64,000 nucleotides of DNA from Pirellulaceae bacterium (GCA_023382975.1 JAHDXO010000005.1:44876-108875), one strand, 5' to 3'. Shown: positions 1,811 through 61,080, counted from the stretch's first letter. A program made the numbers and translations. Notes: a model not told the origin generated them from the letters alone.

Positions 1811-1820
1811 CGGGGATACC

Positions 1821-4298: not shown

Positions 4299-4314
4299 CT
4301 GGGGTTCCTGCAAG

Positions 4315-5814: not shown

Positions 5815-5886
5815 CTACCCGGCCAGGACTCGAACCTGGACTAAGGGAGCCAAAATCCCTAGTGCTGCCAATTACACCACCGGGTA
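5815..5886 (-). tRNA. tRNA-Gln, anticodon UUG.
   Basis: Reverse complement: TACCCGG-TG-GTGT-AATTGGCA-GCAC-T-AGGGA-TTTTGGC-TCCCT-TAGT-CCAGG-TTCGAGT-CCTGG-CCGGGTA-G. It has the U1-A72 pair and G73 discriminator typical of bacterial tRNA-Gln, and the anticodon loop is UUUUGGC. Confidence 0.85.
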
Positions 5887-39795: not shown

Positions 39796-40822
39796 GCACT
39801 CCGGCCGAGTGCAGAATGCGGTACGCGTGATGCCAGCGTACGCTGACCCGACCGGTCGCGTACGCCAACAGGCAGGACAGGCTGAGCATGATCAGGCACC
39901 AGCCCGCTGCTCGGTTGCCGGGCAACTTGTCGCCCAGGCCCAAGATTTGGACGAATTCGCTCTCCTGATCTGCCAGCATAAACACGCCCAACAGCATGGC
40001 ATAGACCATCGCCAATCCCAGCGTGACGAGCGAAACAACCCAGACAGTGCTCCAGTCGGGAAGTTGGGTCATGTAGACGGCGTAGGCGATCTGGAGTACG
40101 CCGGCCAGCAACAGCAGGAAAGCCCAACGCGACACGCCCAGCGATTGAGCCGTGCGAAAATGCTCGACGGCATCCAGGACGGCAGGCACCATACTGAACA
40201 GACTTGCCAGGACCAAAGCCGCGGCCAATTGATGGACCGTCGACCGTCTTGCCGCTTCGGCCTCGTACCCTCGCACCCGTTCCTCCGGAGCTGTCCCGGC
40301 GATTGGGGGCGGCGCGACAGGCGACAGTGCGTCGACGGCGGCGGGCGTCGAGTTCAAGGGTCGATCTTCCTCGATCGGCATCGATATCGCAGATCCGACG
40401 TGCGGCAGAGACGACTGGGTTGGAGTCGGCGGTGGTGTTGGAGTCGACGGTGGTGTTGGAGTCGACGGTGGTGTTGGAGTCGTGCCGCGGGTTGTCGGCG
40501 GCTCGGCGCGCGGTAACGGCGGCGGATTCGGAGCAACGTCTGGCAGCGAAGGCGGAACGGATGGTTCGCGTACGGGCAGTCGTGGCGGGGCGGACGCCCT
40601 GAAGCTCGGCACCGGCGGCGGAGCGGTGCTCCCGCTGGTTGGCAACGCTGGCGGATTGGTCGGTTCAAGCCTCGGCAGCGGCGGCGGTTCCGCGGGGATT
40701 CGATCTGGGACAGGCGGCGGTACACACGCGCCGAACGATGGACACTCCATCTCGCTGGGCACTGTATCAGAGGGCCGATCGAGAGGAACTTCGGAGACAG
40801 GGCACGGGGTGGAGTTTGCCAT
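39782..40822 (-). CDS. Pro/Thr-rich membrane protein (N-terminal PT-repeat region plus about four C-terminal transmembrane helices).
   Basis: Start is MANSTPCP at 40822. It overlaps the upstream gene's stop in TGATG fashion. It carries TPTPPSTPTPPSTPTPPPTPT repeats, and its C-terminus is hydrophobic. Confidence 0.55.
   Translation of the reverse strand: MANSTPCPVSEVPLDRPSDTVPSEMECPSFGACVPPPVPDRIPAEPPPLPRLEPTNPPALPTSGSTAPPPVPSFRASAPPRLPVREPSVPPSLPDVAPNPPPLPRAEPPTTRGTTPTPPSTPTPPSTPTPPPTPTQSSLPHVGSAISMPIEEDRPLNSTPAAVDALSPVAPPPIAGTAPEERVRGYEAEAARRSTVHQLAAALVLASLFSMVPAVLDAVEHFRTAQSLGVSRWAFLLLLAGVLQIAYAVYMTQLPDWSTVWVVSLVTLGLAMVYAMLLGVFMLADQESEFVQILGLGDKLPGNRAAGWCLIMLSLSCLLAYATGRVSVRWHHAYRILHSAGVLSRK
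40419..40490. repeat. Tandem repeat, 18 nt x4 (imperfect), inside a CDS. It encodes (TPTPPS)n.
   Basis: gttggagtcggcggtggt / gttggagtcgacggtggt (x2) / gttggagtcgtgccgcgg. Confidence 0.7.
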
Positions 40823-41826
40823 CAGACGGAAAGAGCGATGACGACGACGATGACGACGCCGAGGAGAAAGAAAGCGGCGCCGGCCAGAAACATCAGAGCC
40901 AGATACGATGAATCGACGCGACGCGAACGCCGAACCGAACGAGCTTTCGAGGAACGCTGCTGGTTCCTCGCGTCTTGGGACGCCCCCGGCACGGGAGACG
41001 GCTGGGGTTGGACCGGCCACGCGCTGGCGGACGCCTGGGTTGGCTGCGGGCCGCCGACGAAACTGGGTGGAGCGAGCGGAGGTGGAGTTGCGACGGGTTG
41101 AGGCCAAGCCGGCGTCGCCATCGGAGCCGTCTGACCGTATTGCGGCTGGCCCTGCGGAACGCCTCCCTGAAACGGGACTCCTGTCGGAACAGCACCAGGA
41201 TAGGTCGCTCCATACACGGGTGAAACCGGTTGCTCGCCCACTGCGGGAGGGCCTCCCAAGGGCGTGTTTGCCGTCGAGAATCCCGCGGTCGGCGCTCCGG
41301 GTTGCTGCATCTGCGACGGTTGGACAGGGGCCGGTGCTGGCCGCATCGGCACGTGCGGGGCGGCCATCGGTACTTCGGGCCGTGGAGCCGCCATCGGCAC
41401 CGCGGAAGCCGCTTGGATCGGATACGCGGCGCCCGCCGGGCGAGCGGCAGGGCGTGCCACCTCGCCGGGCGCGGGAGCCCGGGGTATTTGCTGCCCCACG
41501 GGCACGGTCGGGGCCGATTTGACCGCTCGCTCTTGCCCCGCGGTGGGGATCATCGGAGCGGCGCGGACTTGCCGCTCCTGGCCCGCACTGGCTGCCGCAG
41601 ACGGCCCCGCGGCACCCGGCGGCGGAGCGATGGGAACCTCTTGATGCGGCGCAGTCGGCGACTGACCGGGCAGCGCCGGAGCTCGGCGAACCGGCGTCTC
41701 GCCATGCGGGTGGACCGAACGGGGATCCGGGGTCTCGGCGGTCAAAGGCTCGTCCTCCCAGTACGCGACCTCGTTGTCTTGGAAGCAGTTTGTATTATCT
41801 TCCACATGCCGCCGCATCGCAACCAC
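40822..41826 (-). CDS. Pro/Ala/Gln-rich protein with a single C-terminal transmembrane anchor.
   Basis: 334-aa ORF. It is a low-complexity P/A/Q-rich protein ending in a basic stretch plus the transmembrane helix SSYLALMFLAGAAFFLLGVVIVVVIALSV. It is translationally coupled to the downstream Pro-rich gene. Confidence 0.5.
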   Translation of the reverse strand: MVAMRRHVEDNTNCFQDNEVAYWEDEPLTAETPDPRSVHPHGETPVRRAPALPGQSPTAPHQEVPIAPPPGAAGPSAAASAGQERQVRAAPMIPTAGQERAVKSAPTVPVGQQIPRAPAPGEVARPAARPAGAAYPIQAASAVPMAAPRPEVPMAAPHVPMRPAPAPVQPSQMQQPGAPTAGFSTANTPLGGPPAVGEQPVSPVYGATYPGAVPTGVPFQGGVPQGQPQYGQTAPMATPAWPQPVATPPPLAPPSFVGGPQPTQASASAWPVQPQPSPVPGASQDARNQQRSSKARSVRRSRRVDSSYLALMFLAGAAFFLLGVVIVVVIALSV

Positions 41827-42853
41827 TGGCTTTCAGTCCGCGCTGCGGGAGGTCGGCTTGTGCCGCGGGTGGAGACGGTTCCCAGCGTCTTCCCTGCCAC
41901 GTATCGCGGCGTTCGAACTCTGCCTTGACCGCGGCATGCAGTCCCGGCTTGTCCAAGCACCAAGCAGGCCCGACCAGGAACTCGGGCGGTGCATCGCCGC
42001 CAATTCTCTCGACGATCATCGCGGGCGGCAGAAGCTCGATGAAATCGATCAGTGTCTCGACGTACTCGTCGCGTTCCATCAGTCGGACCTCGCCCCGCAG
42101 CACCTGGTCGGCCAACGGCGTTCTTTTGACGGCGTACAAATTGTGGATCTTGACGGAATCAAGTTCCAACCGCGACAGTTCCCGGGCCGTCGCCAGCATG
42201 TCGTCGCGGCTCTCGCCCGGCAAACCCAGAATCACGTGAGCACCGATCTCGAATCCGCGTCCGCGGCTTCTTTCGATGGCGTCCAGGAACGCTTCGTAAT
42301 CGTGGCCCCGATTCATCCAGACGAGCGAGCGGTTATGGATCGTCTGCAAACCAAATTCAACTGCCAGATACGTCCGCTTGGCAATTTCCGTCAGCAGGTC
42401 CAGCACATCCCCTGGCACGCAATCCGCCCGCGTGCCGATTGCCATCGCGACCACTTGCGGATGCGACAGCGCTTGCTCGTACAATGCGCGCAGCCGGTCG
42501 ACCGGGGCATAGGTGTTCGTTGCTGGCTGGAAGTAGGCCATGAACCGTTCACACTGGTAACGGACGCTCAAACGCCGGATCCCTTCGTCAAGCTGACGAC
42601 GGATCTCCATCGGCGGCAATCGGCGGCTGGGGCTGAAGCTGCGATTGTCACAAAAGACACAGCCGCCGACCGCAACGGTGCCGTCCACGTTGGGACACGT
42701 CATTTTGGCGTCCAAGCTGACTCGCTGGACGCGCCCGCCGAAGCGGTTGCGCAGGAAGAAGCTGCAAGCGTGATACCGCAGGCCGGCCTCGTGCCAGGCG
42801 GTTCGCGACGCTCGATCCGTTGAGGGACAGTTCTTAGTTGACGGACTGGTCAT
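41795..42853 (-). CDS. TIGR01212-family radical SAM protein (YhcC-like).
   Basis: RVQRVSLDAKMTCPNVDGTVAVGGCVFCDN matches the TIGR01212 N-terminal pattern (RVQKISIDAGFTCPNRDG...GGC.FC). Confidence 0.7.
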   Translation of the reverse strand: MTSPSTKNCPSTDRASRTAWHEAGLRYHACSFFLRNRFGGRVQRVSLDAKMTCPNVDGTVAVGGCVFCDNRSFSPSRRLPPMEIRRQLDEGIRRLSVRYQCERFMAYFQPATNTYAPVDRLRALYEQALSHPQVVAMAIGTRADCVPGDVLDLLTEIAKRTYLAVEFGLQTIHNRSLVWMNRGHDYEAFLDAIERSRGRGFEIGAHVILGLPGESRDDMLATARELSRLELDSVKIHNLYAVKRTPLADQVLRGEVRLMERDEYVETLIDFIELLPPAMIVERIGGDAPPEFLVGPAWCLDKPGLHAAVKAEFERRDTWQGRRWEPSPPAAQADLPQRGLKASGCDAAACGR

Positions 42854-42953
42854 CGTCTAGTAAATTGACGGTTAAGTGCATAGTTCCAACGGTGGGTAGT
42901 TGTTGTATCGCAGAATAGTTTACCCGGTGAGCACGGGCAAGTGGAGCGCGAAT

Positions 42954-43352
42954 ATGTACGGTGAGCTTGTTCCATTGGGTGGCGGGGATCCGATTCCCTT
43001 GTTGAAGAAGTCGCTGCTGATCGGACGGCGGGAGGCGTGTGACATCGTTCTGCGGTTCGCCAACGTTTCGGGCGAGCACTGCGAATTGTCGGTGGACGAG
43101 GGCTACTGGTTTGTCGTCGACCGGGGCAGTCGCAACGGCACGAAGGTCGACGGAGTCCGCGTCGGCTCGACGCGCAAGCGATTGGATCCGGGCAACATTT
43201 TGTCGGTTGCCAAGCACAAGTACGAAGTGCGCTATTCGCCGGTGGACGATTTGGGCGCGATGGGTCCGCCGCCTCCGGACCAGGAACCCATGCGAGAGAT
43301 GCTCGGCAAGTCGCTGTTGGACAGGGCCGGGCTAAACCGTCGCCGGAGCTAG
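42954..43352 (+). CDS. FHA-domain protein.
   Basis: LLIGRREACDIVLRFANVSGEHCELSVDEGYWFVVDRGSRNGTKVDG is the FHA core (GR....D..L....VS..H..L....NGT.VNG). An ATG is confirmed at 42954. Confidence 0.75.
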   Translation: MYGELVPLGGGDPIPLLKKSLLIGRREACDIVLRFANVSGEHCELSVDEGYWFVVDRGSRNGTKVDGVRVGSTRKRLDPGNILSVAKHKYEVRYSPVDDLGAMGPPPPDQEPMREMLGKSLLDRAGLNRRRS

Positions 43353-43358
43353 CCGCCT

Positions 43359-43396
43359 CCGCATGTCGATCGCTGTCATCATGCGGTTGCGTTTTG
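43359..43396 (+). terminator. Putative rho-independent terminator after the FHA gene.
   Basis: CCGCATG-(14-nt loop)-CATGCGG followed by TTGCGTTTTG, 6 nt after the TAG stop. Confidence 0.4.
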
Positions 43397-43882
43397 TCAA
43401 CATGCCGTCCGCCTTTTCTGCGCGGCCACGAATCTTTTCTGTTTTCTCCGCGGTTCGGTTTGACACGGAACGAACCTGACATAGGTTTCAAGTGCGGGGC
43501 TGAGGTGCCGAAGGCGCAGCAGTCCCGGTCAGGATGCGAGTCCTGAAAAGGCCTGTCGCCTCCGATCCTCGACAAAGGCAAACCAGTTGCAAAGCTGGGA
43601 CGCAAAGCCGAGGGCCGCTCGGACGTTCGCTCCGGGCGGCAGCCTGGCTGCCGAAAGGATAGATCGCGTTGTTCGCGGAAGTGGTGCGGTCATGGAGCGG
43701 CCGTACGAGGAAAAGAGGCTGGTGTTTCGTGTGTGTGGTAGAGGTCCGCTGGCCGCACGGCAGGCCGAGGCGTCGACAAACGTCTCGCGACCGGAGGAAC
43801 TCGGCGTCCCCTTTTCCCAGATAGCCTTCGCGGGCCGTGCTTGAATCGGCGCCGCGGACGGCGAAATCCATTGGAGGTTGTT

Positions 43883-44077
43883 ATGAACCGTTTCGCTCAG
43901 AAGGTCAGTCATTTCCTGAAGTCTGAAGACGGCCCGACGGCTGTCGAGTACGCCGTGATGCTGGCGTTGATCATCGTCGTGGCTCTGTCGGCGATCACCA
44001 CGGTCGGCACCGGCACCCGTGACATGTTCGACCAGATCGCCGGGGAACTGTCCGGCACGGGAACCGCCACTCCCTAG
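43883..44077 (+). CDS. Flp-family type IVb pilin.
   Basis: MNRFAQKVSHFLKSEDGPTAVEYAVMLALIIVVALSAITTVG carries the Flp motif G-(P)TAVEYAVML. A GGAGG RBS lies 5 nt upstream of the ATG at 43883. 64 aa. Confidence 0.8.
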   Translation: MNRFAQKVSHFLKSEDGPTAVEYAVMLALIIVVALSAITTVGTGTRDMFDQIAGELSGTGTATP

Positions 44078-44298: not shown

Positions 44299-45990
44299 AT
44301 GAATGCTCCGTTGAATTGGAACAGCAGGAACCTGACGCACGGTTGGCAGCGCGGCGTCACCGCGTTTTACTATGGACTGGGACTGACCGAGGCGGATTTT
44401 GACAAGCCGCAGATCGGGATCGGCGTGCCGTTGCTGGACGGGAATCTCTGCAACGTCCACGCCTACGACCTGGCTCAGCGGATCGCGGACGGTTGCCGCC
44501 GCGCGGACATGATCGGTTTTCCGTTCGGCGTGCCCGCGGTCAGTGACAACATCACGCAAGGGCACGAAGGCGGCAACGCCAGTCTTCCGTCCCGCAACAT
44601 GATCGCCAACGGGGCCGAGTGCGTGGTCAGCGCGCACGGCTACGACGCGTTGATCGGACTGCACCACTGCGACAAGAACGGTCCCGGATTCGCCATGGCG
44701 CTGGCCCGCATGAATTATCCGGGATTGCTGGTCAGCGGCGGCACGATCATGCCGGGTTGCCACCGGGGCGAGGAGATCTCGATCCTGGACGTCTACGACG
44801 CACAGGCCGCGGTCGCCGTCGGCAACATGGACCCGTCCGAAGCGGAAGAGATCCTGCGGACCGCCTGTCCCGGGGTCGGCGGTTGCGGCATTGCGGCTTC
44901 GTTCAACACCTGGGGCGTGGCCATGGAAGCCATCGGGCTGATGCTGCCCTACAGCAGCGCGATTCCGGCGATCGACGAAGCCAAGCACGAGGAATGCATC
45001 CGGGCCGGCCAAATCATGCATGGCGTGCTGCAGCAAGGACTACGCCCGCGCGACATCCTCACGCGCCGCGCGTTCGAGAACGCGGCGACGGCCATCGCCG
45101 CGATCGGCGGTTCGACCAACGGCGTGCTGCACCTGCTGGCGCTGGCTCGCGAAGCCGATGTCGAGTTCACCCTGCGCGACATGCAGGCAATTTTCCGCCG
45201 GACGCCCGTGTTGTGCTGTTTCGCCCCGCGCGGCAAGAAGACGATGGTCGACATGCACCGGATCGGCGGCACCCCGGTGTTGTTGAAGCACCTGTGGCGC
45301 GCCGGTCTGCTGGACGGCGACACCATGACCGTGGTGGGCAAGACGCTGGGCCAGGTCGCCGCCGAGGCGCCCGATCTACCCGACGACCAGCAACTGATCG
45401 TCCCGGCCGATGCCCCCTTCAAACCGTTTGCCGACGTGCAGATCTGTTTCGGCAACCTGGCGCCGGACGGCATCGTGTTCAAGGTTTCCAGCATGCAGGA
45501 GCCCCGGTTCCGCGGCGTCGCGTTGTGCTTCGACGACGCCAAGGACGTGGCCGACGCGGTCGAATCCAAGCGGATCCAGCCGGGCAGCGTCATCGTGTTG
45601 CGTTACCTGGGACCGGTCGCATCTGGAATGCCCGAGGTGTTGGTCGCATCGGCCGCACTGGCGGTTCCGGAACTGGACGGGAAAGTCGCCCTGGTCTCCG
45701 ACACCCGCGTGTCCGGCGTTTCGCACGGCGCGATCGGCGTGCATTGTGCGCCCGAGGCCGCGGTGGGGGGCGCCATCGCGCTGGTCGCCGACGGCGACGA
45801 AATCTCGTTCGACCTGCTGGCCGGCGAAGTCACGTTGCACGTCGACGACGCAGAACTCGGCCGCCGCCGTCAGCAGTGGCGGCCCATACCCCGCAAATCG
45901 CGCCGCGGTTACCTGCTGGACTTCGCCGCCACCGCCGCACAAGCCAACCACGGCTGTGTCAGCCGCATCCTGTACCCGGACTGCGCGTGA
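44299..45990 (+). CDS. ilvD: Dihydroxy-acid dehydratase (IlvD/EDD family).
   Basis: 563 aa. It has the Fe-S cluster Cys pattern (CDKNGPG...CPGVGGCG) and similarity to IlvD along the full length. Confidence 0.85.
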   Translation: MNAPLNWNSRNLTHGWQRGVTAFYYGLGLTEADFDKPQIGIGVPLLDGNLCNVHAYDLAQRIADGCRRADMIGFPFGVPAVSDNITQGHEGGNASLPSRNMIANGAECVVSAHGYDALIGLHHCDKNGPGFAMALARMNYPGLLVSGGTIMPGCHRGEEISILDVYDAQAAVAVGNMDPSEAEEILRTACPGVGGCGIAASFNTWGVAMEAIGLMLPYSSAIPAIDEAKHEECIRAGQIMHGVLQQGLRPRDILTRRAFENAATAIAAIGGSTNGVLHLLALAREADVEFTLRDMQAIFRRTPVLCCFAPRGKKTMVDMHRIGGTPVLLKHLWRAGLLDGDTMTVVGKTLGQVAAEAPDLPDDQQLIVPADAPFKPFADVQICFGNLAPDGIVFKVSSMQEPRFRGVALCFDDAKDVADAVESKRIQPGSVIVLRYLGPVASGMPEVLVASAALAVPELDGKVALVSDTRVSGVSHGAIGVHCAPEAAVGGAIALVADGDEISFDLLAGEVTLHVDDAELGRRRQQWRPIPRKSRRGYLLDFAATAAQANHGCVSRILYPDCA

Positions 45991-46037
45991 CGAGGAAGAA
46001 TGGGCTTCCTCCCAACGGGGCACGGCCGCAACCAACT

Positions 46038-46266
46038 CGTTGAACGGTAAGCCGATCGCGACTGCGCCCGAGGGCAGTTCGCATGAACACCGCGTAGTCG
46101 CCTTCGGAGGCTGCTGAAAAAGTCGTGGGGTAAGCTTCCAGCTTGCCAAATGGGGCGTCTAGGAAAGTGCGGGAATCAAAGATACGAAAACTCGGCAAGC
46201 TGGAAGCTTACCCCACCTCGCTTCTTGCCAGTATTTCAGCAGGCTCCTTCGGCTTGCCGTTTAACG
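46038..46266. repeat. Nested inverted-repeat element of about 229 bp (MITE-like). The outer imperfect inverted repeat is CGTTGAACGGTAAGCCGA / TCGGCTTGCCGTTTAACG. The inner perfect 21-bp inverted repeat is GGGGTAAGCTTCCAGCTTGCC (46127-46147) / GGCAAGCTGGAAGCTTACCCC (46194-46214).
   Basis: Read directly from the sequence. The outer arm motif recurs twice as direct repeats at 57171-57228. Confidence 0.7.
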
Positions 46267-46337
46267 AAGATGCGCGCCGCGCGCACCCTACGAACCGTGA
46301 CTCGAGCGGCCGCCTGTTGAACGTGACCGGCGCCGGG

Positions 46338-47210
46338 CTACTCGTTCTCGACGGGAATGTTCAGTTCGCGCAGTGTTTGGCGGAGCCAAGCCAGCGAGCG
46401 TTCGATCATCGGGCCGCCCTGGCCTTCGCATTCCATGCTTAGGACGCCCGTGAAGCGATGCTCGTCAAGGATCTCCAGGCACTGCCGGATGTTGGCCGCG
46501 TTGACGCCGTCGCCCAACGCACAATGGCTGACGGCGATGCCGGTTTCTTCGCCGCGGACTGCCGCGGCCAGCGATTGGCTGACATCCTTGACGTGAACAT
46601 GCGAGACCCGATGGACCAGACGGCGCAGAAAATCCACCGGATCGCGGCCGGCGATGAACGTGTTGCCCGTGTCCATGTTCATCCGCAGGTACGGGCTGTC
46701 GACGAAGTCCAGCATCTCAGCGACTCGTTCGGGATCGGTCGTGAAATAGCCGTGGACTTCGATGTTGATGATGATCTCGTAGACCTCGGCCACTTCCAGG
46801 ATCTGTTCGTAGCTGCGCCGCATCAGCGCCATCGCCTCGCCGTCGCTCAGCCCTTCCGGCTTCTTCAAGCCGTCGGTGGTGGCGATCCGGTCGCAGCCGG
46901 CCAGCTTGGCCCATTGCAGCGACCGCAGCACGTAGGGCACGCCGTACAACGGCCCGTCCTTGCCGGACAGCGGAAACGCCGCGTCAACTTGTGAAAATCG
47001 CACGCCGTAGCGGTCCATTTTCTTTCGCAGCAGCACGGGATCTTCGTACATTGCCACGTGCGGCTGATAGCCCAGGCCGTGAATCCAGCTTGCGCCGTCG
47101 ATCAAGCCGCATTCGATGAAATGGACATCATTCTGCTGGGCCCACTGCAGACACCGCTCGAAGTTCCAGTACGACGAGTTAAAGGCGTCGGTATGAAAGC
47201 CGATCTTCAT
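46338..47210 (-). CDS. Sugar-phosphate isomerase/epimerase (xylose-isomerase-like TIM barrel) family protein.
   Basis: Start is MKIGFHTDAF. Its ATG overlaps the stop of the upstream URO-D-like gene (ATGA). The ORF track's long N-terminal extension to 48047 is an antisense/GC artefact. Confidence 0.65.
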   Translation of the reverse strand: MKIGFHTDAFNSSYWNFERCLQWAQQNDVHFIECGLIDGASWIHGLGYQPHVAMYEDPVLLRKKMDRYGVRFSQVDAAFPLSGKDGPLYGVPYVLRSLQWAKLAGCDRIATTDGLKKPEGLSDGEAMALMRRSYEQILEVAEVYEIIINIEVHGYFTTDPERVAEMLDFVDSPYLRMNMDTGNTFIAGRDPVDFLRRLVHRVSHVHVKDVSQSLAAAVRGEETGIAVSHCALGDGVNAANIRQCLEILDEHRFTGVLSMECEGQGGPMIERSLAWLRQTLRELNIPVENE

Positions 47211-48238
47211 GGCAAAGTCTCCGCGCAAGAGGCAGATGAATCGAGAGCGTAACGAGTCAACGCGAGCAGGTTTTCGCGAGGCGTGCCGCGGGGCACTTCG
47301 CACCCGGCGCCGATGATGTACCGCGGGCCGGCCTCGCGGTGGCACTGGGCAACCGCCGCGGTGATCGCCTCGGGCGTGCCGTTGCGCAACAACCGAACCG
47401 GATCGAGATTGCCCAGCAACACCGGCTCCGGCCCCATCGCCGCCCGCGCGTCGGCCACGGGAACCATGAAGTCCAGGTCGACGATCTCGCAGCCCAGGCG
47501 GCCGATCGGTTCGAGGATGCGGTTGATGTTGCCGCAGATGTGCAAGCGGACTTTGCAGCCCATCTCGTGCAAGCCGTCCACCAACCGCTTCTCGTATTCC
47601 CAGACGAAGTCCCGGTAGATCTGCGGGCCCACCAGCGACGCCGCCGCGTCGCCGACGCCCATCAGTTCCACCCCGGCCTCGACCTGGGCGCGGGCGAACC
47701 GCAGTCCCATCCGCAGCACGAACTCGAACAGCTCGTGGACGAAGGCCGGGTCGTCGTAGAAGTCGAGCATCAGGGTGTTGATTCCGCGCAGATCGGCCGC
47801 CTCGGCGCACGGGCCTTCGATCCAGCCCTCGATCAACCGCCCGCCGCCACGTTCGCGAAACAACGCGGCGGCCCGCACGCGGTCGTGCATGCGTCCGCCG
47901 CCCAGCGGATCGGGAATCTCCAGACTCTTCAGCGCCGCCTTGTCTGCCAACCGGGCGTTCATTTCGTCGATCGCCGGCGGCTGGTCGTCGAACACCTGCA
48001 CGTTGGCTCCGCAGTCGGCGGCTTCGCGGGCGGGATCGGAAATGCACGAGACGTAGTCGAACCCGTACGCCTCAGCCGTCTTCTCCTGACCCTCGACCAG
48101 CACGCGGTAGTCCGTCGCGTACTGTCCGTACGGACGGCGGATGTGATCGGCGGCGAACATCATGGTGATCGGCATCAGCGGGAGTCGGTCGACCGGATGA
48201 CCCGCGATCAGCGCGAGAATGCGTTCGCGTCCGTTCAT
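47207..48238 (-). CDS. Uroporphyrinogen-decarboxylase (URO-D) family protein (MtaA/CmuA-like).
   Basis: It starts MNGRERILALIAGHPVDRLPLMP and shows URO-D-family similarity. The start position was computed from the ORF track. Confidence 0.6.
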   Translation of the reverse strand: MNGRERILALIAGHPVDRLPLMPITMMFAADHIRRPYGQYATDYRVLVEGQEKTAEAYGFDYVSCISDPAREAADCGANVQVFDDQPPAIDEMNARLADKAALKSLEIPDPLGGGRMHDRVRAAALFRERGGGRLIEGWIEGPCAEAADLRGINTLMLDFYDDPAFVHELFEFVLRMGLRFARAQVEAGVELMGVGDAAASLVGPQIYRDFVWEYEKRLVDGLHEMGCKVRLHICGNINRILEPIGRLGCEIVDLDFMVPVADARAAMGPEPVLLGNLDPVRLLRNGTPEAITAAVAQCHREAGPRYIIGAGCEVPRGTPRENLLALTRYALDSSASCAETLP

Positions 48239-48313
48239 GGCAGTACCCTCAGCGCGGTTTCGTCGTCGTTGGAGCGTGGAATGCCGCAATGATCCCAATC
48301 GCCCCGCGGACTG

Positions 48314-48976
48314 TCAAGACGACGGCCCTGGTTCGTCGCGCGGGCCGAGTTGCGGAACCGATCCGAACCGGTAACCGAAATGTCGAAGGTCGTCCGCGTA
48401 ACGCCGCGCGACGACTTCCACCAGGTCCGGCGTGTAGTGCGGCTTGTGGAACTCGAAGTCGCTACGGCGTCGCGCGGAATCGATCGGCGTCCAGGGCAGC
48501 GGCGCCAAACCGAACCGCAGACGGATCGGCTCCCAGTCGGCGGGCAGGTTCTCGAAGCGGCCGACATAATCGACAACCAACCGCCGTTGGTAACCGAGCG
48601 TGTGGAACTGGCCGACGAAATGCCCGTCTGCTTGTTCGTCCGGGATCTCCGCGACGCCGTGGACGAAATCGGGAAAGGCCATGCCCGGAGTGAAGCCGAA
48701 ATCGCCGAAAATAAAGTCCCGACCGTGCAGCACCGGGCCGAGGATCTTGTCCTGGTAGCACGAAAACAGCCTCGCCCAGGGATCGCGCACAAAGGCGAAC
48801 CGGAAGTAGCCGTCCATCCCGGCCACTTCGGCTGTGGACGCGGCGGAGCAACGGGGCCAGTCATCGAACTCGATGCCCAGTTTGTCGGTGATCGCCCGGT
48901 GGATCACCATACTGGCCACCTTGGCCACCGCGATCCAGACGAACCGGGATTCGTGCGAAACCAGGATGCGCGTCAC
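48314..48976 (-). CDS. Sulfotransferase family (Sulfotransfer_2-like) protein.
   Basis: ILVSHESRFVWIAVAKVASM...RDPWARLFSCYQDKI fits the PAPS-binding 5'-PSB and 3'-PB pattern of this family. A GTG start at 48976 overlaps the GT4 stop (GTGA). Confidence 0.55.
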   Translation of the reverse strand: MTRILVSHESRFVWIAVAKVASMVIHRAITDKLGIEFDDWPRCSAASTAEVAGMDGYFRFAFVRDPWARLFSCYQDKILGPVLHGRDFIFGDFGFTPGMAFPDFVHGVAEIPDEQADGHFVGQFHTLGYQRRLVVDYVGRFENLPADWEPIRLRFGLAPLPWTPIDSARRRSDFEFHKPHYTPDLVEVVARRYADDLRHFGYRFGSVPQLGPRDEPGPSS

Positions 48977-50175
48977 GGGGCCAGCACCTCGGCACCCGCC
49001 GGGTGCGCCTGCCGATCCGCGCCGCGCCCGTGCTTCTCGGTCCACAACCGCTCGAACAACTGCTCGTACTGCCGAGCCATTCGCCAAGCGTGACCGTGCT
49101 GTTCGGCGTACCGGCGTCCTTCGGCCGCGACGCCGCGCGCCCAGTCAGGATGTTCCCACAAACGCCGCGCGGCCTGGCACACCGATTCCACTTCGCCGTC
49201 GACCACCAGCCCGTTCACCCGGTCGATGATCGCTTCCGGCACGCTGCCGACCGGCGTGGCAATCACGGGACGGCCGCACATCATGGCTTCCAGGACCACC
49301 AGCGCGAAGCCCTCGAATTCGGACAACAGGCAGAGCGTATCCAGCGACTGGTAGTAGTCTCCCAGATGCCGGTCGGCGCTGACGAAAGCGAACCGTCCGG
49401 GGATCAAGTCGTTGGCCAACTCGAACAACTCCTGACGGAGCGGTCCCCAGCCGACGACCAGCGCCTTGAAATTCGGCGGCAACTGGGCCGTCGCGCGGAT
49501 GACCCGGTCGGCGCGTTTCTCGGGCGACAGGCGGCCGACGAAGCCCAGGACGAAATCGTCGGGCTGGAAGCCGAGCGACGCGCGGACCTGTTGCCGCGAA
49601 CGGGTCTTGCTGAGCCGCGCCGTATCGACGCCGTTCAGGATCACCGAACTGGGAAACCCGTCGCACACCTTTCGCTGAACGCCCTGGCTGACAGCCACCA
49701 CGTGATCGACCACGCGGCGGCTGCCGACCAGCAGGTCGTGCGTCCAATAACTGTCGCCGTGCGCCAGATAGACGCACAACGGAGGGCGGCAATCGGCCAG
49801 CCAAGAATCCAGCATCATTCCCCAAAACATCACGACATCGTGCTCCCGGGCCGCCTGCCGCACCGATAGCTCGTCCCCCGGTTCGACCGGCACGGGCATG
49901 TCGGCCGCCACGGCGGGATCGAGCATGTTCGGATCGGTGACGATGCACTTCTCGATCCGAACTCGGGAAGGATCGAGGAACCGAGCCAGGTCGATCGCGT
50001 GGTTCTCCGCTCCGCCGCGGGAGAAACACGGTCCGATGTGGACCACCCGCAACGGCTTCGGAGCCAGCGGCGCGGTCGCTTCTCCGGCCGAGAACTGCGA
50101 CGATTGCGCCGCCGAAGACCGCTTCGGTAACTCGCGGTAGGCGTAGGTGTCGGACTGGTTCGCCAAATAAGTCAT
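48973..50175 (-). CDS. Glycosyltransferase family 4 (GT-B fold).
   Basis: It has the C-terminal EX7E-type motif region (LLSEFEGFALVVLEAMMCGRPVIATPVGSVPE). Start is MTYLANQ at 50175, with 'cat' confirmed. Confidence 0.75.
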   Translation of the reverse strand: MTYLANQSDTYAYRELPKRSSAAQSSQFSAGEATAPLAPKPLRVVHIGPCFSRGGAENHAIDLARFLDPSRVRIEKCIVTDPNMLDPAVAADMPVPVEPGDELSVRQAAREHDVVMFWGMMLDSWLADCRPPLCVYLAHGDSYWTHDLLVGSRRVVDHVVAVSQGVQRKVCDGFPSSVILNGVDTARLSKTRSRQQVRASLGFQPDDFVLGFVGRLSPEKRADRVIRATAQLPPNFKALVVGWGPLRQELFELANDLIPGRFAFVSADRHLGDYYQSLDTLCLLSEFEGFALVVLEAMMCGRPVIATPVGSVPEAIIDRVNGLVVDGEVESVCQAARRLWEHPDWARGVAAEGRRYAEQHGHAWRMARQYEQLFERLWTEKHGRGADRQAHPAGAEVLAP

Positions 50176-50268
50176 GGTGCTGTCTCCCGTGGTCGTTCTC
50201 AAGTCGGAATTGCTTGACGTCGGAGTATGGGTTCGATCCGGATTCTCGCCGATTCGGTTGCGGGGTGG

Positions 50269-52800
50269 TCAGGGGTTGCCGCCGGGCTTGACGGCTCCAA
50301 CGTGAGCGGGAAACTCCGAATCGTTCGCCCCGGCGGTCCACAGGGGCGAATCGGGCGGGGGACGGAGGAAATCGGCGTGCTCGCGATCACTTCGATTGAT
50401 GACGTCGATCTTTGGCTGAATCTCCGCCAAGCTAGGCCAGAGGTTGTTCCATTCGGACCTGGTTTGGTCCGTTTCCCACCAATTCGATCGAAACTTCCAA
50501 TTGGCTGCGATCCCGGGGAGAACGTCCGGTTCGCCTTGAACGCTCCCGCTGGCCAGGATCAGATTATTGACAAAGGCGATCCCGGCCGGCTCGAACGTGG
50601 CCGAATGCACCAATCCCAGCCAGTGTTCCATCCCATAGAACGTGTTATTGCAGACGACCAACTGTTCGAGTTGCGATGGCGTCTGGACGTCCAGATTCAG
50701 CGCGACGGTTGTGCCGGGCCACCCCGTTCCTTCCGCGGCGTCCGAATCGGCGCGCAAGAACTGGTTGCCGCGAATCGTCACGTTCTTCAGCAGGCCGTCG
50801 GCCAGCACCAAGACTCCGCGTCCCTCGAATCGGTTCTCCTCTAGACGCACCGTCTGCAGTCCTTCCGCACAGCTCATCCGCAAGCAATGGCCTGTCCCCG
50901 GGGAATCGAGAGTCGAACGGCGAATCGTGATCGGACCGGCATTCCCGTTCGTCGCTCGGGCTCGAATATCGATGGCGGGCGAACCGCCGCTGGGCGGCTG
51001 AACACAACGCACCTGCTCGACCAACACGTCTTGGCAGTCCCCTTCGATCACGATTCCATAACAGCCGCCGGTTCGGATCTCGAGGCCGCGGATCGTGATC
51101 CCCGAGACGTCCCGGACCGTGACCACGGCCGAGTCCGAACTCGAGTCGGCACATTTCAGAACGGGCCGGAGTGCGGCGTCGGGCGCGGCGGCCAAAGTGA
51201 CGCCAGCCAATCGCTCCGGATCGTCGACCAAGATCGTTTCGTCATACTCCTTGTCGGGATAGATCTGAACGGTGACGCCAGGCGTAGCTCGGAGAAGTGC
51301 TTCCGCGATCGTTCCGAAGCCGCCCGGTCGCTTGGCGAGGTCGCCCACCGCGATGATGCCTGCGAAGCTTCCGCCGATCTCGATGATCTCCGCGCCGGAT
51401 TCGGGCGACTGACCGTCCTGATGCCGGCCCAGAATCGGCCAGATCGCCAGCAGTGCAAGAATGAGCACGAGCGGCACGACGGCCAGGACTCGGCGCGATG
51501 TCACCCGCGGTCGCTTGGGAAGAATCTGGATTTCCGTCTGTGTTGGACTTTCTGACATGCCTTCCGATGGGCCCTCTAGAATTGTCTCCGACGTATTTTC
51601 CGAAGGCTCCACCACGGGTGCCTCGGAGCGTTGCTGCAGGCGTATGTTGCGCATGACTCCCGAGATTTCGTCCGTGGGCGATTCGTTCAACCGGGCCTGA
51701 TAATGCTCCAGAAGGTCGGCGAGTTCCGCGGCGCTCGAGAAGCGATCTTCCGGGCGTTTGGCGAGCAAACGCTGAGTCACGTCCACGAGAAATCCCGGAG
51801 TTCCCGGAATAACCTGATCCAAAGGTGGCGGGTCGTCTTCCACAATTCGGCGCGCGATTTCGAATTGACTGGTCCCTCGAAACGGTGTGCGGCCGGCAAC
51901 CATCGCGTAGATGACACAGCCCAAGCTGAACAGGTCCGTGCGCGAATCCAGTTCCCCGGCCGTCACCTGCTCGGGCGACATGTAGGCGGGCGTCCCGACG
52001 GCCAAACCGTGCGACGTCAAGTCGACCTGGTCGATCGCCGCGCGAGCCAGTCCGAAATCCGTGAGCTTCACCCACAGGGCGCCGCGATCCAGCAAGAGAT
52101 TTCCGGGTTTGATGTCGCGGTGGATCACGCCCTGCTGATGCGCCGCAGCCAGTCCCTGGGCGATGCCCTTGGCTAAACGCACGACTTCCATCGGGGGCAA
52201 TCGCTCGCGGTTGCGAATGTATTCCCGCAACGTGCCCCCCGCCACGTATTCCATCACCAAGTAAGGGGAACTCCGCTGCTCTTCCACCCCGAAAATCGTC
52301 ACTACATTCGGATGGATGATCCCGGCCGCGGCCCGGGCTTCGCGGATGAAACGACGTCGCGCCCGCTCGCTGGTCGAGATCTGTCGTTTCAGCAGCTTGA
52401 TGGCAACCGTTCGTCGCAGGCCTTCCTCGTAGGCCTCCAGCACGACTCCCATCGCGCCTTGCCCGATGATGCGCCGGACTTGGTATCTTCCCAGACGGCC
52501 CAGGAAGTCAGGATTCTTCGAAGGTTCCAGCAGCGAAGCGTCGAAGCTGTCTTCCGCGTCGTCGTCCGCGGTGGGACGTGCCGCTTCGACGATGCTGACT
52601 TGGTGCGACCCACTCTTGGTCGCTTCCGCGTTGTCCTGCAGATCGTCGCCGAAATCGTGGAACAACTCCTCCTGAAACCAGACGACTCGGCTTGAGCACT
52701 TCTGGCAGGACTCCAGATGGCCCCGGATTGGCTCGCGTACCCCCTCATCCAGCAGTCCCGCGGCAAAATTGATCAATAGATCGTCGGTTGGACAGTTCAT
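50269..52800 (-). CDS. Ser/Thr protein kinase with an N-terminal zinc-finger-like CxxC pairs, one transmembrane segment, and a C-terminal right-handed beta-helix (pectin-lyase-fold) extracytoplasmic domain.
   Basis: Kinase motifs are present: GQGAMGVVLEA...AIK, HRDIKPGNLLL, DFGLA, and SPEQ. The N-terminal HLESCQKCSS is zinc-finger-like. The C-terminus has repeated beta-helix-like units (ITIRG..., VTIRGN...). Start is MNCPTDDLL at 52800, with 'cat' confirmed. Confidence 0.8.
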   Translation of the reverse strand: MNCPTDDLLINFAAGLLDEGVREPIRGHLESCQKCSSRVVWFQEELFHDFGDDLQDNAEATKSGSHQVSIVEAARPTADDDAEDSFDASLLEPSKNPDFLGRLGRYQVRRIIGQGAMGVVLEAYEEGLRRTVAIKLLKRQISTSERARRRFIREARAAAGIIHPNVVTIFGVEEQRSSPYLVMEYVAGGTLREYIRNRERLPPMEVVRLAKGIAQGLAAAHQQGVIHRDIKPGNLLLDRGALWVKLTDFGLARAAIDQVDLTSHGLAVGTPAYMSPEQVTAGELDSRTDLFSLGCVIYAMVAGRTPFRGTSQFEIARRIVEDDPPPLDQVIPGTPGFLVDVTQRLLAKRPEDRFSSAAELADLLEHYQARLNESPTDEISGVMRNIRLQQRSEAPVVEPSENTSETILEGPSEGMSESPTQTEIQILPKRPRVTSRRVLAVVPLVLILALLAIWPILGRHQDGQSPESGAEIIEIGGSFAGIIAVGDLAKRPGGFGTIAEALLRATPGVTVQIYPDKEYDETILVDDPERLAGVTLAAAPDAALRPVLKCADSSSDSAVVTVRDVSGITIRGLEIRTGGCYGIVIEGDCQDVLVEQVRCVQPPSGGSPAIDIRARATNGNAGPITIRRSTLDSPGTGHCLRMSCAEGLQTVRLEENRFEGRGVLVLADGLLKNVTIRGNQFLRADSDAAEGTGWPGTTVALNLDVQTPSQLEQLVVCNNTFYGMEHWLGLVHSATFEPAGIAFVNNLILASGSVQGEPDVLPGIAANWKFRSNWWETDQTRSEWNNLWPSLAEIQPKIDVINRSDREHADFLRPPPDSPLWTAGANDSEFPAHVGAVKPGGNP

Positions 52801-52930
52801 GGATTGTCCGTTTCTTCGCGAGGTTTGATCCTGAGGTTGCGATTCTAACATCGCCCCGTCAATTTGCCTACCACTTTCGGGCAGCGAATACTGGAGCTTC
52901 GTCGGGATTCCTGTAAAACTGACAACCTCG

Positions 52931-53851
52931 ATGATTCAACGCATTTCTGAGGAGGCAACGATCGCCATGACTTCCGACCTTTCTCTCCAGCACCTACCTT
53001 CGGGTGCCCTCTTTTCCTTGCCCGAGACTCGGGCGGCGTGGGAAGCGTATCGCTTGACGCCCGAGCAAGTGGCTCGTTATGAGCAGGACGGGTTCCTGAG
53101 CGGTATCCGGATTCTGGACGACGATCAAATTGAGCGGCTGCGCACGGAACTGGAGACCTTCTTCGAACCTGCCCATCCGGGGCATGAGCTTTGGTACGAG
53201 TACCACACCAACGAATCGGCCGATCCGAGCAGAGTATTGTTTCATGCCTTGGGAGCGTGGCGGATCGCCCTTGGCTTTCACGATCTGTTGTGGCACCCCG
53301 CTTTCACCGTGCCGGCCAGTCAACTGCTGGGCGGTCCCGTGCGGTTCTGGCACGACCAGTTGTTCTGCAAACCGGCGCATCATGGGGGAGTTGTCGCGTG
53401 GCACCAGGACTATTCGTACTGGACCAGAAGCCAGCCGATGGCCCATCTGACCTGTTGGATCGGCTTGGACGACAGCACCCGGGACAACGGATGCGTCCAT
53501 TACGTCCCGGGCAGCCATCGCTGGCCCCTGCTGCCGATCACCGGGTTGGCTGGCGATATGGATGCTATTCGCCAAGTGCTTGATCCGCAACAATGGGAGC
53601 AGTTCCAACATCCCGTGGCAGTCGAATTGAAGCGGGGCGAGGCGACCTTCCACCATCCGTTGATGGTCCACGGCTCGTTCGAAAACCGCACCGATCGCCC
53701 GCGCCGCGCCGCCGTGATCAACTCGGTGCTCGACGGCGTGAAGTCGGTTTCGGATCAGCCGCTGTTGCAAGGAGTTCCGGTCCTCCCGCCCGGCACGCCG
53801 CTGGGCGGGCAGTTTTTCCCTTTGCTGTTCGATCCAGCCGTGTTGGCTTGA
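52931..53851 (+). CDS. Phytanoyl-CoA dioxygenase (PhyH) family Fe(II)/2-oxoglutarate oxygenase.
   Basis: WHQDYSYW...H..GSHRW fits the PhyH His-Asp...His metal-binding pattern. Confidence 0.7.
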
Positions 53852-53857
53852 TCGACG

Positions 53858-53888
53858 TTCGCGAAGCGAATTCTCGTGAATTCGCCTA
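53858..53888. repeat. Copy of the GAATTC-N4-GAATTC palindromic repeat.
   Basis: gcGAATTCtcgtGAATTCgcctac. Confidence 0.7.
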
Positions 53889-53994
53889 CAGAGTCCTGAT
53901 CGAGGCAAGATCCTCCACCGCCATGCGAAATACGATCGGTTTGTGGATCTGCCTCACGACTCACGCAACATCCAAGAAGAAGGAGATCATTTCG

Positions 53995-55719
53995 ATGTCT
54001 CGAACCAGAGTGCTCTTGACCTTGATGGTGCTCGCGCTATGCGGCACCTTGTTCCGTTCCGCAGCGGCGGCCGAAGATGTCTTGAAGGTAGTGCCCCACG
54101 ACGTCCTGGGCGCAGTGGTCGTTAGCGATCCGGCGGGAACGGTGGGCAAGTGGAGCGAGGCGGCCGCGAAGCTCGATATGCCCGCGCCCGACTTTGCTGC
54201 CATGCTCAAGCAACAGTTCGGCGCGATCGAAGGGATCGACCGTCGCGGCTCCGCCGCGATTGCTGCGGTTCCCGCGGACGGTCCCAGCGGCCCGACGATG
54301 GTCGCATTCGTGCCGGTCACCGACTATGGCAAGTTGCTCCAGTCCGTAGCCGCCGAGAAAGCGAGCGAGACGATTTCCAAGGCGACGGTTGCCGGACGCG
54401 CCGTGCTGATCGCTCAACACGGCGCATTTGCCCTGGTCACCGAGGCCGGCGGGGAGGCTGCCCTGAACAAAACGATCGCTGCGCGACGCAGCCTGGGCGA
54501 CGACATGACGGCGCTCAAGGAACGACTCGTCGGGGTGGACGTCTACGCCGTCGCGGCTCCGGCGGGAATCAAGATGGCTCAGCAGCAGTTGCTGGCAGGA
54601 CTGGCCGCGGCCAAAGCCGCGATGGAGCAGCAGGGCGAGGCGGCGCAGCAAGCCGTCGTCGGGCTGCAGATGTACGAATCGATGTTCCAGAACATGGACC
54701 GCGAGATCACTCACGCCGTGGCCGCCGCCCGCGTCGAGGACGGTGGTACGGTTCGCGTCACGTTGAGCGCGGCCTTTACGGCCGATGGCTTGCTCGCCCG
54801 CTTGGGCAGCGCACCCAAGACGCCGCCGGTGGATCTGCTGGAGGATCTACCGCTGGGCGAGTTCCTGTTCGCCGGGGGCGGGAAGCTGCCGCTGGACTGG
54901 AGCACCACGCTAGCCGAACTGTCGAAGAACGTGATGAAAATGTACTTTCAGGATGCCAAGCTGAGCGATGCACAACTGGACGAGATCACCAAGGCATCCG
55001 CGGAATCCGCCAAGGGCATGCACAGCATGTCCATGATGATGGGACTGGTTCCGCCCGACGAGCCGCTGTACGCCAACACCGTCCTGGTGCTCAAAGTCGA
55101 CGACGCGCGGACGTACATGGATGCCTACGTCCGGGCGATGGAGCAGATGAACGAGGTCATGAAGGGTTTGGAGAAGCCGCCGCTGGGCTACGCGGTCGAA
55201 CGGATTCGCGTGGGCGGCAAAGACGGTTTTCGGATCGAAATGCAATTGAAAGGGATGATCGCCGACCCGGCGGTGCCCAACATGAACGCGATGTTCGAGA
55301 AGATGTTCGGAGCGGCCGATTCCATGTCCATCTACTTGGCGGCTCGCGATGAACACACCGTGGTGGGCACATACATTTCTCTGCGGCGTCTGGAGGAACT
55401 TCTGAAGCAGGGCAGCGGCCAAGCATCGTTGAGCCGCGATCCTCAAGTGACCAAGACGCTGGCGCTGTTGCCGCCCAATGCCGACGGGATCGGATTGTGG
55501 AGTCCTTCGGCCACGTTCAAGTTCGCGGCCCAAATGATCGGCGCGATCGAGCCCCAGGCAGCGACGATGATCCCCGCCTTTCCCGAAAGTCCGCCGCTGG
55601 GTGTGGCGACCGGCATGACCGCCCAGCGGTTGGATATCGACGTGGTGTTGCCCGCCGAGTTGCTGCGGGCGATCGCAGCGTTTGCCCGGCAGATCCAAGA
55701 GCCGCAGCAACTGAATTGA
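53995..55719 (+). CDS. Secreted hypothetical protein, 574 aa.
   Basis: An AAGGAG RBS lies 9 nt upstream of the ATG confirmed at 53995. Signal peptide MSRTRVLLTLMVLALCGTLFRSAAAAED. I do not recognise a domain. The ORF track extends upstream to 53593 through the repeat. Confidence 0.6.
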   Translation: MSRTRVLLTLMVLALCGTLFRSAAAAEDVLKVVPHDVLGAVVVSDPAGTVGKWSEAAAKLDMPAPDFAAMLKQQFGAIEGIDRRGSAAIAAVPADGPSGPTMVAFVPVTDYGKLLQSVAAEKASETISKATVAGRAVLIAQHGAFALVTEAGGEAALNKTIAARRSLGDDMTALKERLVGVDVYAVAAPAGIKMAQQQLLAGLAAAKAAMEQQGEAAQQAVVGLQMYESMFQNMDREITHAVAAARVEDGGTVRVTLSAAFTADGLLARLGSAPKTPPVDLLEDLPLGEFLFAGGGKLPLDWSTTLAELSKNVMKMYFQDAKLSDAQLDEITKASAESAKGMHSMSMMMGLVPPDEPLYANTVLVLKVDDARTYMDAYVRAMEQMNEVMKGLEKPPLGYAVERIRVGGKDGFRIEMQLKGMIADPAVPNMNAMFEKMFGAADSMSIYLAARDEHTVVGTYISLRRLEELLKQGSGQASLSRDPQVTKTLALLPPNADGIGLWSPSATFKFAAQMIGAIEPQAATMIPAFPESPPLGVATGMTAQRLDIDVVLPAELLRAIAAFARQIQEPQQLN

Positions 55720-55742
55720 CCGATCCTCTCAGCGAGACCGCC

Positions 55743-60528: not shown

Positions 60529-61080
60529 GCCGTCGGGCAGAGATTCATGGCCATTGCCGTTGGCTCGGGACGGAGGCGTTGCTCGACACATGCCCGGCCG
60601 AAGGCCAACCGTTTGCCTAGCCCAGCCCAACGGGCTGCGTAACAATGTCGTTCATACCGTGAGGGCCAGCGGCCCGGCCATTTGCGACAAAGAATGGGAT
60701 CGTCACACCATGTCACAATCGCACGCTCAAGTCTGGTTGCACATCGTTTTCTCGACCAAAGAACGACGCGGTTTTCTCCGGAAGGAATCATTCCGCGATC
60801 AGATGTTCCGAATGCAAGCCATGTAGGACAAAGTGGACGCGCACATTCGGAGTCAGGGCCAGCATCACGCGACAAGGTCATTCCAGGACGAGGAAAGCAC
60901 ACGATTAGCCATGGCTGGTTTTATCCAAAGAGTGGCATTGGTCAAGGAATCTGGGTGAAATTTGGGGAATTTTTGGGCCTACGAAACGAATACGGATCGG
61001 TTCGTGGATTTTCGTGGCATACTTTTAGGAATGGCCCGGATGGTGGATCGATTCGGGTTGGGAAAGGCTTGAGGAGTACC

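Follow-up and report, generated by a model that had tools for sequence, protein, structure and literature searches.

We describe a string of five minus-strand genes in a 64,000-nucleotide stretch of DNA from a Pirellulaceae bacterium (GCA_023382975.1, JAHDXO010000005.1:44876-108875; the whole stretch is called the window below). Its first three genes, encoding a membrane serine/threonine (Ser/Thr) protein kinase, a family-4 glycosyltransferase (GT4) and a sulfotransferase (ST), form a conserved module with the kinase first, which is uncharacterized and narrowly distributed. The last two, encoding a protein of the URO-D superfamily and a xylose-isomerase-like TIM barrel, are ordinary, widespread genes of a housekeeping type that lie beside the module in this genus only. 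An initial annotation, made from the sequence alone, had read the GT4, ST, URO-D-like and TIM genes as one translationally coupled operon that might serve a sulfated-glycoconjugate pathway. This four-gene reading is largely refuted by synteny, and we consider it likely that the string is not a single pathway but three units, each conserved on its own (i.e., the module, the URO-D-like gene and the TIM gene), that lie side by side in this genus. The three units were brought together recently. The genes are, in the order of transcription:

50269-52851, minus strand: membrane Ser/Thr protein kinase, 860 amino acids (Pkinase, E 1.2e-53)
48973-50175, minus strand: GT4 glycosyltransferase (Pfam Glycos_transf_1 and Glyco_transf_4, EX7E motif)
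48314-48976, minus strand: ST, 220 amino acids (Pfam Sulfotransfer_2; GTG start)
47207-48238, minus strand: URO-D-superfamily protein, predicted MtaA type, 343 amino acids (PF01208)
46338-47210, minus strand: xylose-isomerase-like TIM barrel, 290 amino acids (AP_endonuc_2)

The conserved kinase-GT4-ST module

The order and strand of the kinase, GT4 and ST genes are kept in all seven other lineages whose contigs leave room upstream, with identities to the window of 37-71% for the kinase, 65-91% for GT4 and 60-84% for ST. Wherever the contig extends far enough, the kinase match is full-length and includes the C-terminal domain, and GT4 retains its 65-91% identity across all ST-orthologue loci. 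The kinase gene, which the initial annotation did not mention, lies 93 nt upstream of GT4 on the same strand in the window, and in locus L007 a 4-nt overlap joins the kinase to GT4, GT4 to ST and ST to the gene after it. The linkage of GT4 and ST proposed earlier is thereby borne out, the two being a conserved, often overlapping pair across lineages. The gene orders, listed by the identity of the ST to that of the window, are:

L089/L090 (ST 84%): Pkinase, GT4, ST; then URO-D and TIM
L091 (ST 75%): Pkinase (C-terminal part; the contig begins inside the gene), GT4, ST; then a 390-amino-acid protein of unknown function and PEP_hydrolase
L009 (ST 72%): Pkinase, GT4, ST; the contig ends ~800 nt past ST
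L007/8 (ST 71%): Pkinase, GT4, ST; then a DedA/VTT gene
L001-4 (ST 62%): Pkinase, GT4, ST; then FAD-oxidase/Fer4
L005/6 (ST 60%): Pkinase, GT4, ST; then a convergent gene of unknown function
L178 (ST 60%): Pkinase, GT4, Methyltransf_23, ST; then a small open reading frame (ORF) and GATase genes
P0019 lineage (ST 55%): a cut, unidentified 392-amino-acid ORF, Methyltransf_23, ST; then a 3-dmu-9_3-mt-family gene, PMT_2 and LptF/G

In the two lineages whose ST diverges most, a gene for an S-adenosylmethionine (SAM) methyltransferase (Methyltransf_23) directly precedes ST; in L178 (4685-5248) it lies between GT4 and ST, and the second case is P0019. On the P0019 contig, PMT_2 is a GT-C gene and LptF/LptG a permease gene. 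The ST family itself is small, comprising 23 clusters at at least 55% identity, all from planctomycetal metagenome-assembled genomes (MAGs) or metagenomes, and a scan of GTDB representatives with the ST alignment returned just two close relatives. The surroundings of 78 distant Sulfotransfer_2 genes, drawn from many phyla, showed no kinase/GT4 synteny.

The assignment of ST is upheld. The protein matches Sulfotransfer_2 (PF03567) over profile positions 3-251 of 252 (E 7.6e-13, 49.6 bits against a cut-off of 22), and its predicted model shows the alpha/beta fold of sulfotransferases that use 3'-phosphoadenosine-5'-phosphosulfate (PAPS), not another fold. Its GTG start is likewise sustained by the homologues, which share the same M/V-TRILVSH N-terminus, the TRILVSH part being common to 19 close ones. 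Residues K19, R64 and S72 do not vary among 26 homologues; by analogy, K19 would be the lysine that binds the 5'-phosphosulfate and R64...S72 the 3'-phosphate-binding motif, with the lysine motif reading AVAKVAS and not PKxGS/T. Hydropathy gives no transmembrane segment. We thus predict a PAPS-dependent sulfotransferase, which would transfer a sulfuryl group to a carbohydrate hydroxyl.

GT4 matches both Glycos_transf_1 (PF00534; E 1.9e-28, 99.6 bits) and Glyco_transf_4 (PF13439; E 1.9e-07, 31.7 bits) above cut-off. It is a GT-B enzyme of the retaining type with an EX7E motif (EGFALVVLE, residues 288-296), a Ser/Thr/Gln-rich N-terminal tail of ~45 amino acids and no transmembrane segment. All NCBIfam equivalogs that were compared, including BshA, MshA, stp2 and PimB, stay under their cut-offs (the best-scoring one being stp2, with 93.9 against 409 bits; BshA has 88.5 against 273.7 bits), so that no acceptor can be assigned in this way. 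The closest solved structures are a sucrose-phosphate-synthase-like protein, BshA, PimB' and MshA, whose acceptors are small molecules or lipids; TreT is also among the solved relatives. Since the GT4-ST pair is conserved, and the ST fold and PAPS motifs are intact, a function of the pair in glycosylation plus sulfation is a reasonable prediction.

The kinase has a weak zf-HC2-like N-terminus, a Hanks-type domain (residues 123-373) with the catalytic motifs GQGAMGVV, VAIK, HRDIKP and DFG all in place, a single transmembrane helix (~455-475; hydropathy peak 2.86) and a C-terminal right-handed beta-helix domain (residues ~487-860). The last assignment comes from scanning an alignment of the domain's family against Pfam and PDB, as a single-sequence AlphaFold2 model (pLDDT 39.6) was unusable and was dropped. 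Of 15 family members, 10 match Beta_helix (best E 6.4e-10), and the PDB profile matches are all to beta-helix carbohydrate enzymes or NosD (alginate lyase PL6, GH110, NosD, polygalacturonase and pectate lyases). We take this domain to be probably periplasmic. Its family counts 382 representatives, most of which carry it at the C-terminus of proteins of ~750-850 amino acids, and the kinase motif HRDxKPxN is present in 93 of the top 150 proteins. Some members of 1100-1250 amino acids have two or three tandem copies, and the family (with proteins P0274-P0423) shares a C-terminal signature, ...NNLIL...W.FR.NWWE...SRDP..PDFLRP..GSPL...G.GG..P..VGA.PP. The kinase-GT4 intergenic region could not be aligned beyond the nearest relative.

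The URO-D-like and TIM-barrel genes beside the module

ORF calls and Pfam confirmed the four minus-strand genes of the initial annotation together with their domain assignments, and the two overlaps it described, GTGA at the GT4 stop and ST start and ATGA at the URO-D stop and TIM start, are both read in the sequence. What does not hold is a single coupled run: the coupling exists inside each pair, and the pairs are split by a 75-nt spacer (48239-48313). Moreover, 4-nt overlaps occur elsewhere in the window, at 10137-10140 (between a sulfatase and a pyridoxal-phosphate enzyme gene), at 15555-15558 (DsbD/DUF4058) and at 42850-42853. As they are frequent here, they weigh little as functional evidence; they are a property of the genome and no mark of shared function. 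Three further features divide or border the string:

48289-48317, minus strand: sigma-70-like promoter candidate (TTGACA, 17 nt, GATCAT, with an upstream TG)
44299-45990, plus strand: IlvD/Edd-family dehydratase (ILVD_EDD_N, E 1.5e-98), convergent with the TIM gene
52931-53851, plus strand: PhyH-family dioxygenase (PhyH, E 2.1e-37), divergent from the kinase

If all four genes formed one operon and one pathway, with the URO-D-like and TIM proteins acting on the same sulfated glycan or glycolipid as GT4 and ST, their shared strand, the overlap within each pair and the short distance of 75 nt between pairs would be expected, as would the preservation of the arrangement in the nearest relative, L089/L090. 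However, the adjacency goes no further: URO-D and TIM follow ST in L089/L090 only and are absent from this position in all six more distant ST lineages. L089/L090 also share the convergent IlvD gene, which is the downstream boundary of the string, and are most likely of the same genus as the window. Identity to this relative is uneven along the string, rising from 71% for the kinase through 84% for ST and 91% for GT4 to 95% for URO-D and 98% for TIM.

The surroundings of URO-D orthologues were sampled at 80 metagenome loci (L094-L173; 65-77% identity), 58 of which have at least 1 kb of downstream sequence. A TIM orthologue follows in 0 of these 58, and neither ST nor GT4 lies near the gene in any of the 80; the TIM side gives the same picture, as none of three TIM loci (L174, L175 and L176) has an adjoining URO-D gene. 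Beyond the nearest relative, the conserved synteny whose lack was to refute the pathway, by the terms of the initial annotation, is thus missing from every side. Both genes have other recurrent partners elsewhere and are far more widespread and conserved than ST, and a promoter-like site is conserved in the gap between ST and URO-D. Together with the frequency of 4-nt overlaps between unrelated genes of the window, this makes the four-gene pathway very improbable.

The promoter candidate is the sole promoter-like match in 45900-50500, against 0.4 expected from shuffles, and lies in the 75-nt spacer. Both hexamers and the 17 nt of distance between them are unchanged in L089/L090, where the remaining spacer sequence has diverged and contains a 15-nt indel. 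These features are a weak hint that URO-D and TIM have a promoter of their own.

The URO-D-like protein matches PF01208 with E 2.2e-54 (185 bits). Its best NCBIfam match is MtaA/CmuA (TIGR01463), at 144.4 bits against a cut-off of 235.4 and hence under the curated subfamily threshold, and among solved structures it is closest to MtaA (4ay7, E 5.3e-20), the zinc-ligand positions LHICGN and GC being aligned. Of 120 orthologues, all have the zinc motif H233-x-C235; C313 lies within GAGC. An identity as HemE was rejected: TIGR01464 reaches 69 bits against 303, over the C-terminal half only, and the N-terminal substrate-binding motif RQAGR is absent. The placement in the URO-D/MtaA family, for which a comparison of zinc ligands and decarboxylase residues had been suggested, accordingly survives, with the MtaA motif kept and that of HemE missing, and we predict an MtaA-like zinc methyltransferase outside the curated MtaA/CmuA subfamily.

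Its orthogroup is large (7866 matches, with more than 120 clusters at at least 72% identity), widespread and tightly conserved in Planctomycetes. A neighbour from a corrinoid system was found at 32 of the 80 loci, namely DUF1638 (26, directly upstream), S-methyl_trans (13), RACo (7), Pterin_bind (7) and B12-binding (2, at long loci), and a second URO-D paralogue is nearby at 11. The recurring order is B12-binding, Pterin_bind, S-methyl_trans, DUF1638, URO-D, (second URO-D) and RACo, as seen in L144 (668-6162), L150 (508-8993) and L097 (1-3217). In the window, tblastn with DUF1638, S-methyl_trans, RACo, Pterin_bind and the second URO-D gave no match, and a scan of the 64 kb for B12-binding motifs found none, so that neither a cognate corrinoid protein nor an activase accompanies the gene there. 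The initial annotation had called a URO-D-family member without a corrinoid partner unusual in such an operon; for this orthogroup the lack of an adjacent one is in fact the norm, as no B12-binding gene lies within 8 kb at 78 of the 80 orthologue loci. At one locus, L128, the URO-D orthologue is immediately followed by a PhyH orthologue (9090-9962, 63% identity), which is probably a coincidence given the many URO-D paralogues that planctomycetes carry.

The TIM protein matches AP_endonuc_2 (E 3.1e-28, 99.6 bits against a cut-off of 31.1) and reaches the cut-off of no NCBIfam equivalog, the best named one being IolE (E 5.5e-11, 42.5 bits against 290); its best named PDB matches are AsbF and Art22. 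It, too, is strongly conserved among planctomycetes, its orthologues forming more than 120 clusters at 74-100% identity. Orthologues at 77-83% identity lie in TetR-ThuA-TIM-Gfo/Idh/MocA clusters (L174 and L176, at 77-80%) or after a peptidase M16 gene (L175).

On the opposite flank, PhyH is a divergent neighbour in L089 (92% identity) and L007 (80%) and is absent in L001, L005 and L178; it is therefore a neighbour in the closer lineages only and stands outside the core module. A Pfam-less ORF that follows PhyH (~575-700 amino acids) keeps its position in L007 and L089. A second Hanks-type kinase gene (55497-57158, plus strand), ~2.6 kb from the first, is also found in these two loci, and a second AP_endonuc_2 TIM-barrel gene (38869-39795, plus strand) lies ~6.5 kb downstream of the first. 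The two extra genes illustrate the expansion of both families in this genome.

Proposed working of the module

GT4 and ST are both soluble, with no transmembrane segment, and are predicted to be cytoplasmic. We suggest, as the most likely mechanism, that GT4 would use a nucleotide sugar to glycosylate an acceptor, either a small molecule or a lipid, on the cytoplasmic side or inner leaflet of the membrane, that in some lineages the SAM methyltransferase would then O-methylate the product, and that ST would finally sulfate the glycoside from PAPS. The kinase, with its catalytic domain in the cytoplasm, one transmembrane helix and a presumably periplasmic, pectin-lyase-like beta-helix, could couple a signal from the envelope or its glycans to this synthesis, possibly by phosphorylating GT4 in its N-terminal tail, which is rich in Ser and Thr. 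It is plausible that GT4 and ST would make a sulfated glycoside or glycolipid, with a link to the beta-helix kinase, and we lean towards an envelope glycolipid, in view of the DedA, PMT_2 and LptF/G neighbours in some lineages. Of the other two units, the MtaA-type zinc methyltransferase most likely transfers methyl to or from a corrinoid protein whose gene lies elsewhere in the genome, and the TIM barrel resembles sugar isomerases or epimerases, its orthologues belonging to ThuA-Gfo/Idh/MocA sugar-oxidation clusters.

The invariable first place of the kinase would also fit a module that modifies protein, either by O-glycosylation and subsequent sulfation of a kinase substrate or envelope protein, or by direct protein sulfation through ST. 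Some GT4 enzymes are indeed protein O-glycosyltransferases, and NCBIfam gives a weak match to SdgB (E 1.7e-06, far under cut-off). Yet the closest solved relatives of GT4 use small-molecule or lipid acceptors, and the cluster holds no conserved candidate for an acceptor protein. The methyltransferase in two lineages and the DedA, PMT_2 and LptF/G neighbours also agree better with a small glycoconjugate or envelope lipid, and we regard protein modification as unlikely.

Conversely, the product might be a soluble sulfated glycoside, such as a compatible solute resembling sulfotrehalose, which the kinase would tune under envelope or osmotic stress. Both enzymes are soluble, there is one glycosyltransferase and no polymerase or exporter, and the solved GT4 relatives include the sucrose-phosphate-synthase-like protein and TreT; in addition, two ST-orthologue contigs derive from MAGs with 'CSSed' in their isolate names, which we read as soda-lake sediment. 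Against a solute stand the lack of a conserved phosphatase or solute-transport gene in the cluster, the DedA, PMT_2 and LptF/G neighbours, which point to the envelope, and the periplasmic beta-helix sensor, which suggests a glycan ligand. This explanation appears to us quite improbable.

We return to the envelope product and propose, tentatively, that a narrow clade of Pirellulales possesses an undescribed kinase-GT4-ST module, joined in some members by a SAM methyltransferase, that makes a sulfated and sometimes methylated envelope glycolipid or glycoside under kinase control. Several observations weigh against the division of the string into three units and the working suggested above for the module. 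The link from the kinase to GT4 is one of adjacency, the ST clade is small (about 23 clusters) with contexts mostly on short metagenome contigs, and the 64-kb window contains no genes for PAPS synthesis, a flippase or export. All five genes are co-directional in this genus with gaps of at most 93 nt, and could be co-transcribed whatever their function. The promoter candidate is a consensus match in two lineages, and its first hexamer overlaps the ST stop codon, which partly constrains it. Lastly, in L005 a URO-D paralogue (1558-2592, 33% identity) lies near the kinase and divergent from it, leaving room for a loose URO-D association; as with the PhyH neighbour in L128, the number of planctomycetal URO-D paralogues makes this probably a coincidence.

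Window setting and comparison with known systems

The remaining genes of the window are an ordinary housekeeping mix, including type I restriction-modification, BioB, PheST, fumarase, an ADP-forming acyl-CoA synthetase, UppP, Nramp and a GH2 beta-galactosidase. The surroundings had been described as sulfatase-rich, but there is one sulfatase gene only within the 64 kb. Wzx/Wzy genes are absent from it. Anti-phage defence was considered and rejected, as PADLOC matches the kinase domain only, and generically (PD-T4-6 and others), and gives no match for GT4, ST, URO-D or TIM; a weak GT4-conflict match in Pfam (E 0.0036, under cut-off) was likewise dismissed. A search of Rfam found no riboswitch or other RNA element either within the gene string or upstream of it. 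Beyond its downstream boundary, a full-length c-di-GMP-I-GGC riboswitch aptamer (RF03167) is found at 43568-43656 on the plus strand (71.8 bits against a gathering score of 59, E 4.9e-15), overlapping the 5' part of an unsupported minus-strand ORF (42850-43605). About 200 nt past the aptamer, a small plus-strand ORF (43841-44077) encodes a product, MNRFAQKVSHFLKSEDGPTAVEYAVMLALIIVV..., that resembles a Flp-family (Tad) pilin by motif alone.

The type I restriction-modification genes (524-4214, plus strand) comprise an HsdS-like specificity subunit and an HsdR that is seemingly split into a ResIII part (1800-3182) and an EcoEI_R_C part (3300-4214). Beside them are tRNA-Val(CAC) (4314-4388) and tRNA-Gln(TTG) (5815-5886), both on the minus strand, and the region may border on a mobile or variable one. 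Long spurious ORFs are plentiful, as the window is GC-rich (~62%). Long ORFs with a strong coding signal and no Pfam match lie at 53593-55719, 60694-61734 and 61737-63818 on the plus strand and at 39782-41020 on the minus strand.

Planctomycetes are known chiefly as degraders of sulfated glycans, and, to our knowledge, few bacterial sulfated glycoconjugates have been described, mostly cyanobacterial exopolysaccharides, rhizobial Nod factors and mycobacterial sulfolipids. For this reason, the conserved kinase-GT4-ST module would be a small but concrete lead to a sulfated planctomycetal envelope molecule and its regulation; if the proposal is true, it would represent a kinase-gated route to sulfated glycoconjugates in bacteria other than cyanobacteria. 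The string also carries a caution, namely that, where a genome is compact and GC-rich, a common strand and 4-nt overlaps between genes are no evidence of a shared pathway; the orthologues here have wholly different partners.

The TIM orthologues that sit in planctomycetal ThuA/Gfo-Idh-MocA sugar clusters are the likeness to a known setting for the third unit; here the gene is detached from such a cluster and overlaps the URO-D-like gene. For the second unit, the likeness is to the methylcobalamin:coenzyme M methyltransferase MtaA (4ay7) and bacterial MtaA-like proteins (PMC10418091), which share the H-x-C...C zinc motif. It differs from MtaA in falling under the MtaA/CmuA cut-off, and in that no corrinoid protein is encoded in the window. 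We know of no coenzyme M pathway in the planctomycete host. Another relevant system is the split methionine synthase with its RamA-like/DUF1638 reactivation, which consists of B12-binding, Pterin_bind, S-methyl_trans, DUF1638 and RACo parts (PMC5764234; PMC12478193). The URO-D orthologues are embedded in clusters of exactly those parts, from which the gene in the window is detached. A URO-D-family member is not among the components described for that system (PMC5764234; PMC12478193), and the abundant planctomycetal orthogroup inside split-methionine-synthase/corrinoid clusters is a side result of this analysis.

As for the module, its ST can be set beside the eukaryotic Sulfotransfer_2 carbohydrate sulfotransferases (HS6ST 5t03 and HS2ST 3f5f), to which it is just 11-14% identical; it is much shorter (220 amino acids), soluble and bacterial, and has AVAKVAS in place of their usual PKxG(S/T)(S/T). 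In mycobacterial Stf0 (sulfolipid-1) and rhizobial NodH, a small glycoside or glycolipid is sulfated from PAPS in the cytoplasm after a glycosyltransferase step, a logic that the proposed succession of GT4 and ST would share. The synechan locus xss of Synechocystis PCC 6803 resembles the module in combining glycosyltransferases, PAPS-type sulfotransferases and a dedicated signalling or regulatory part in one cluster (PMC8205485). That cluster, however, holds eight glycosyltransferases, two sulfotransferases, Wzx/Wzy/PCP polymerization and export functions and a two-component plus STAND regulator (PMC8205485), whereas the module has a single GT4 and a single ST, with neither a polymerase nor an exporter anywhere in the 64 kb, and, as its signalling part, a Hanks-type kinase with a beta-helix ectodomain. 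Relative to xss, NodH and Stf0 alike, the ST family, the accompanying machinery and the regulation all differ in the module described here.

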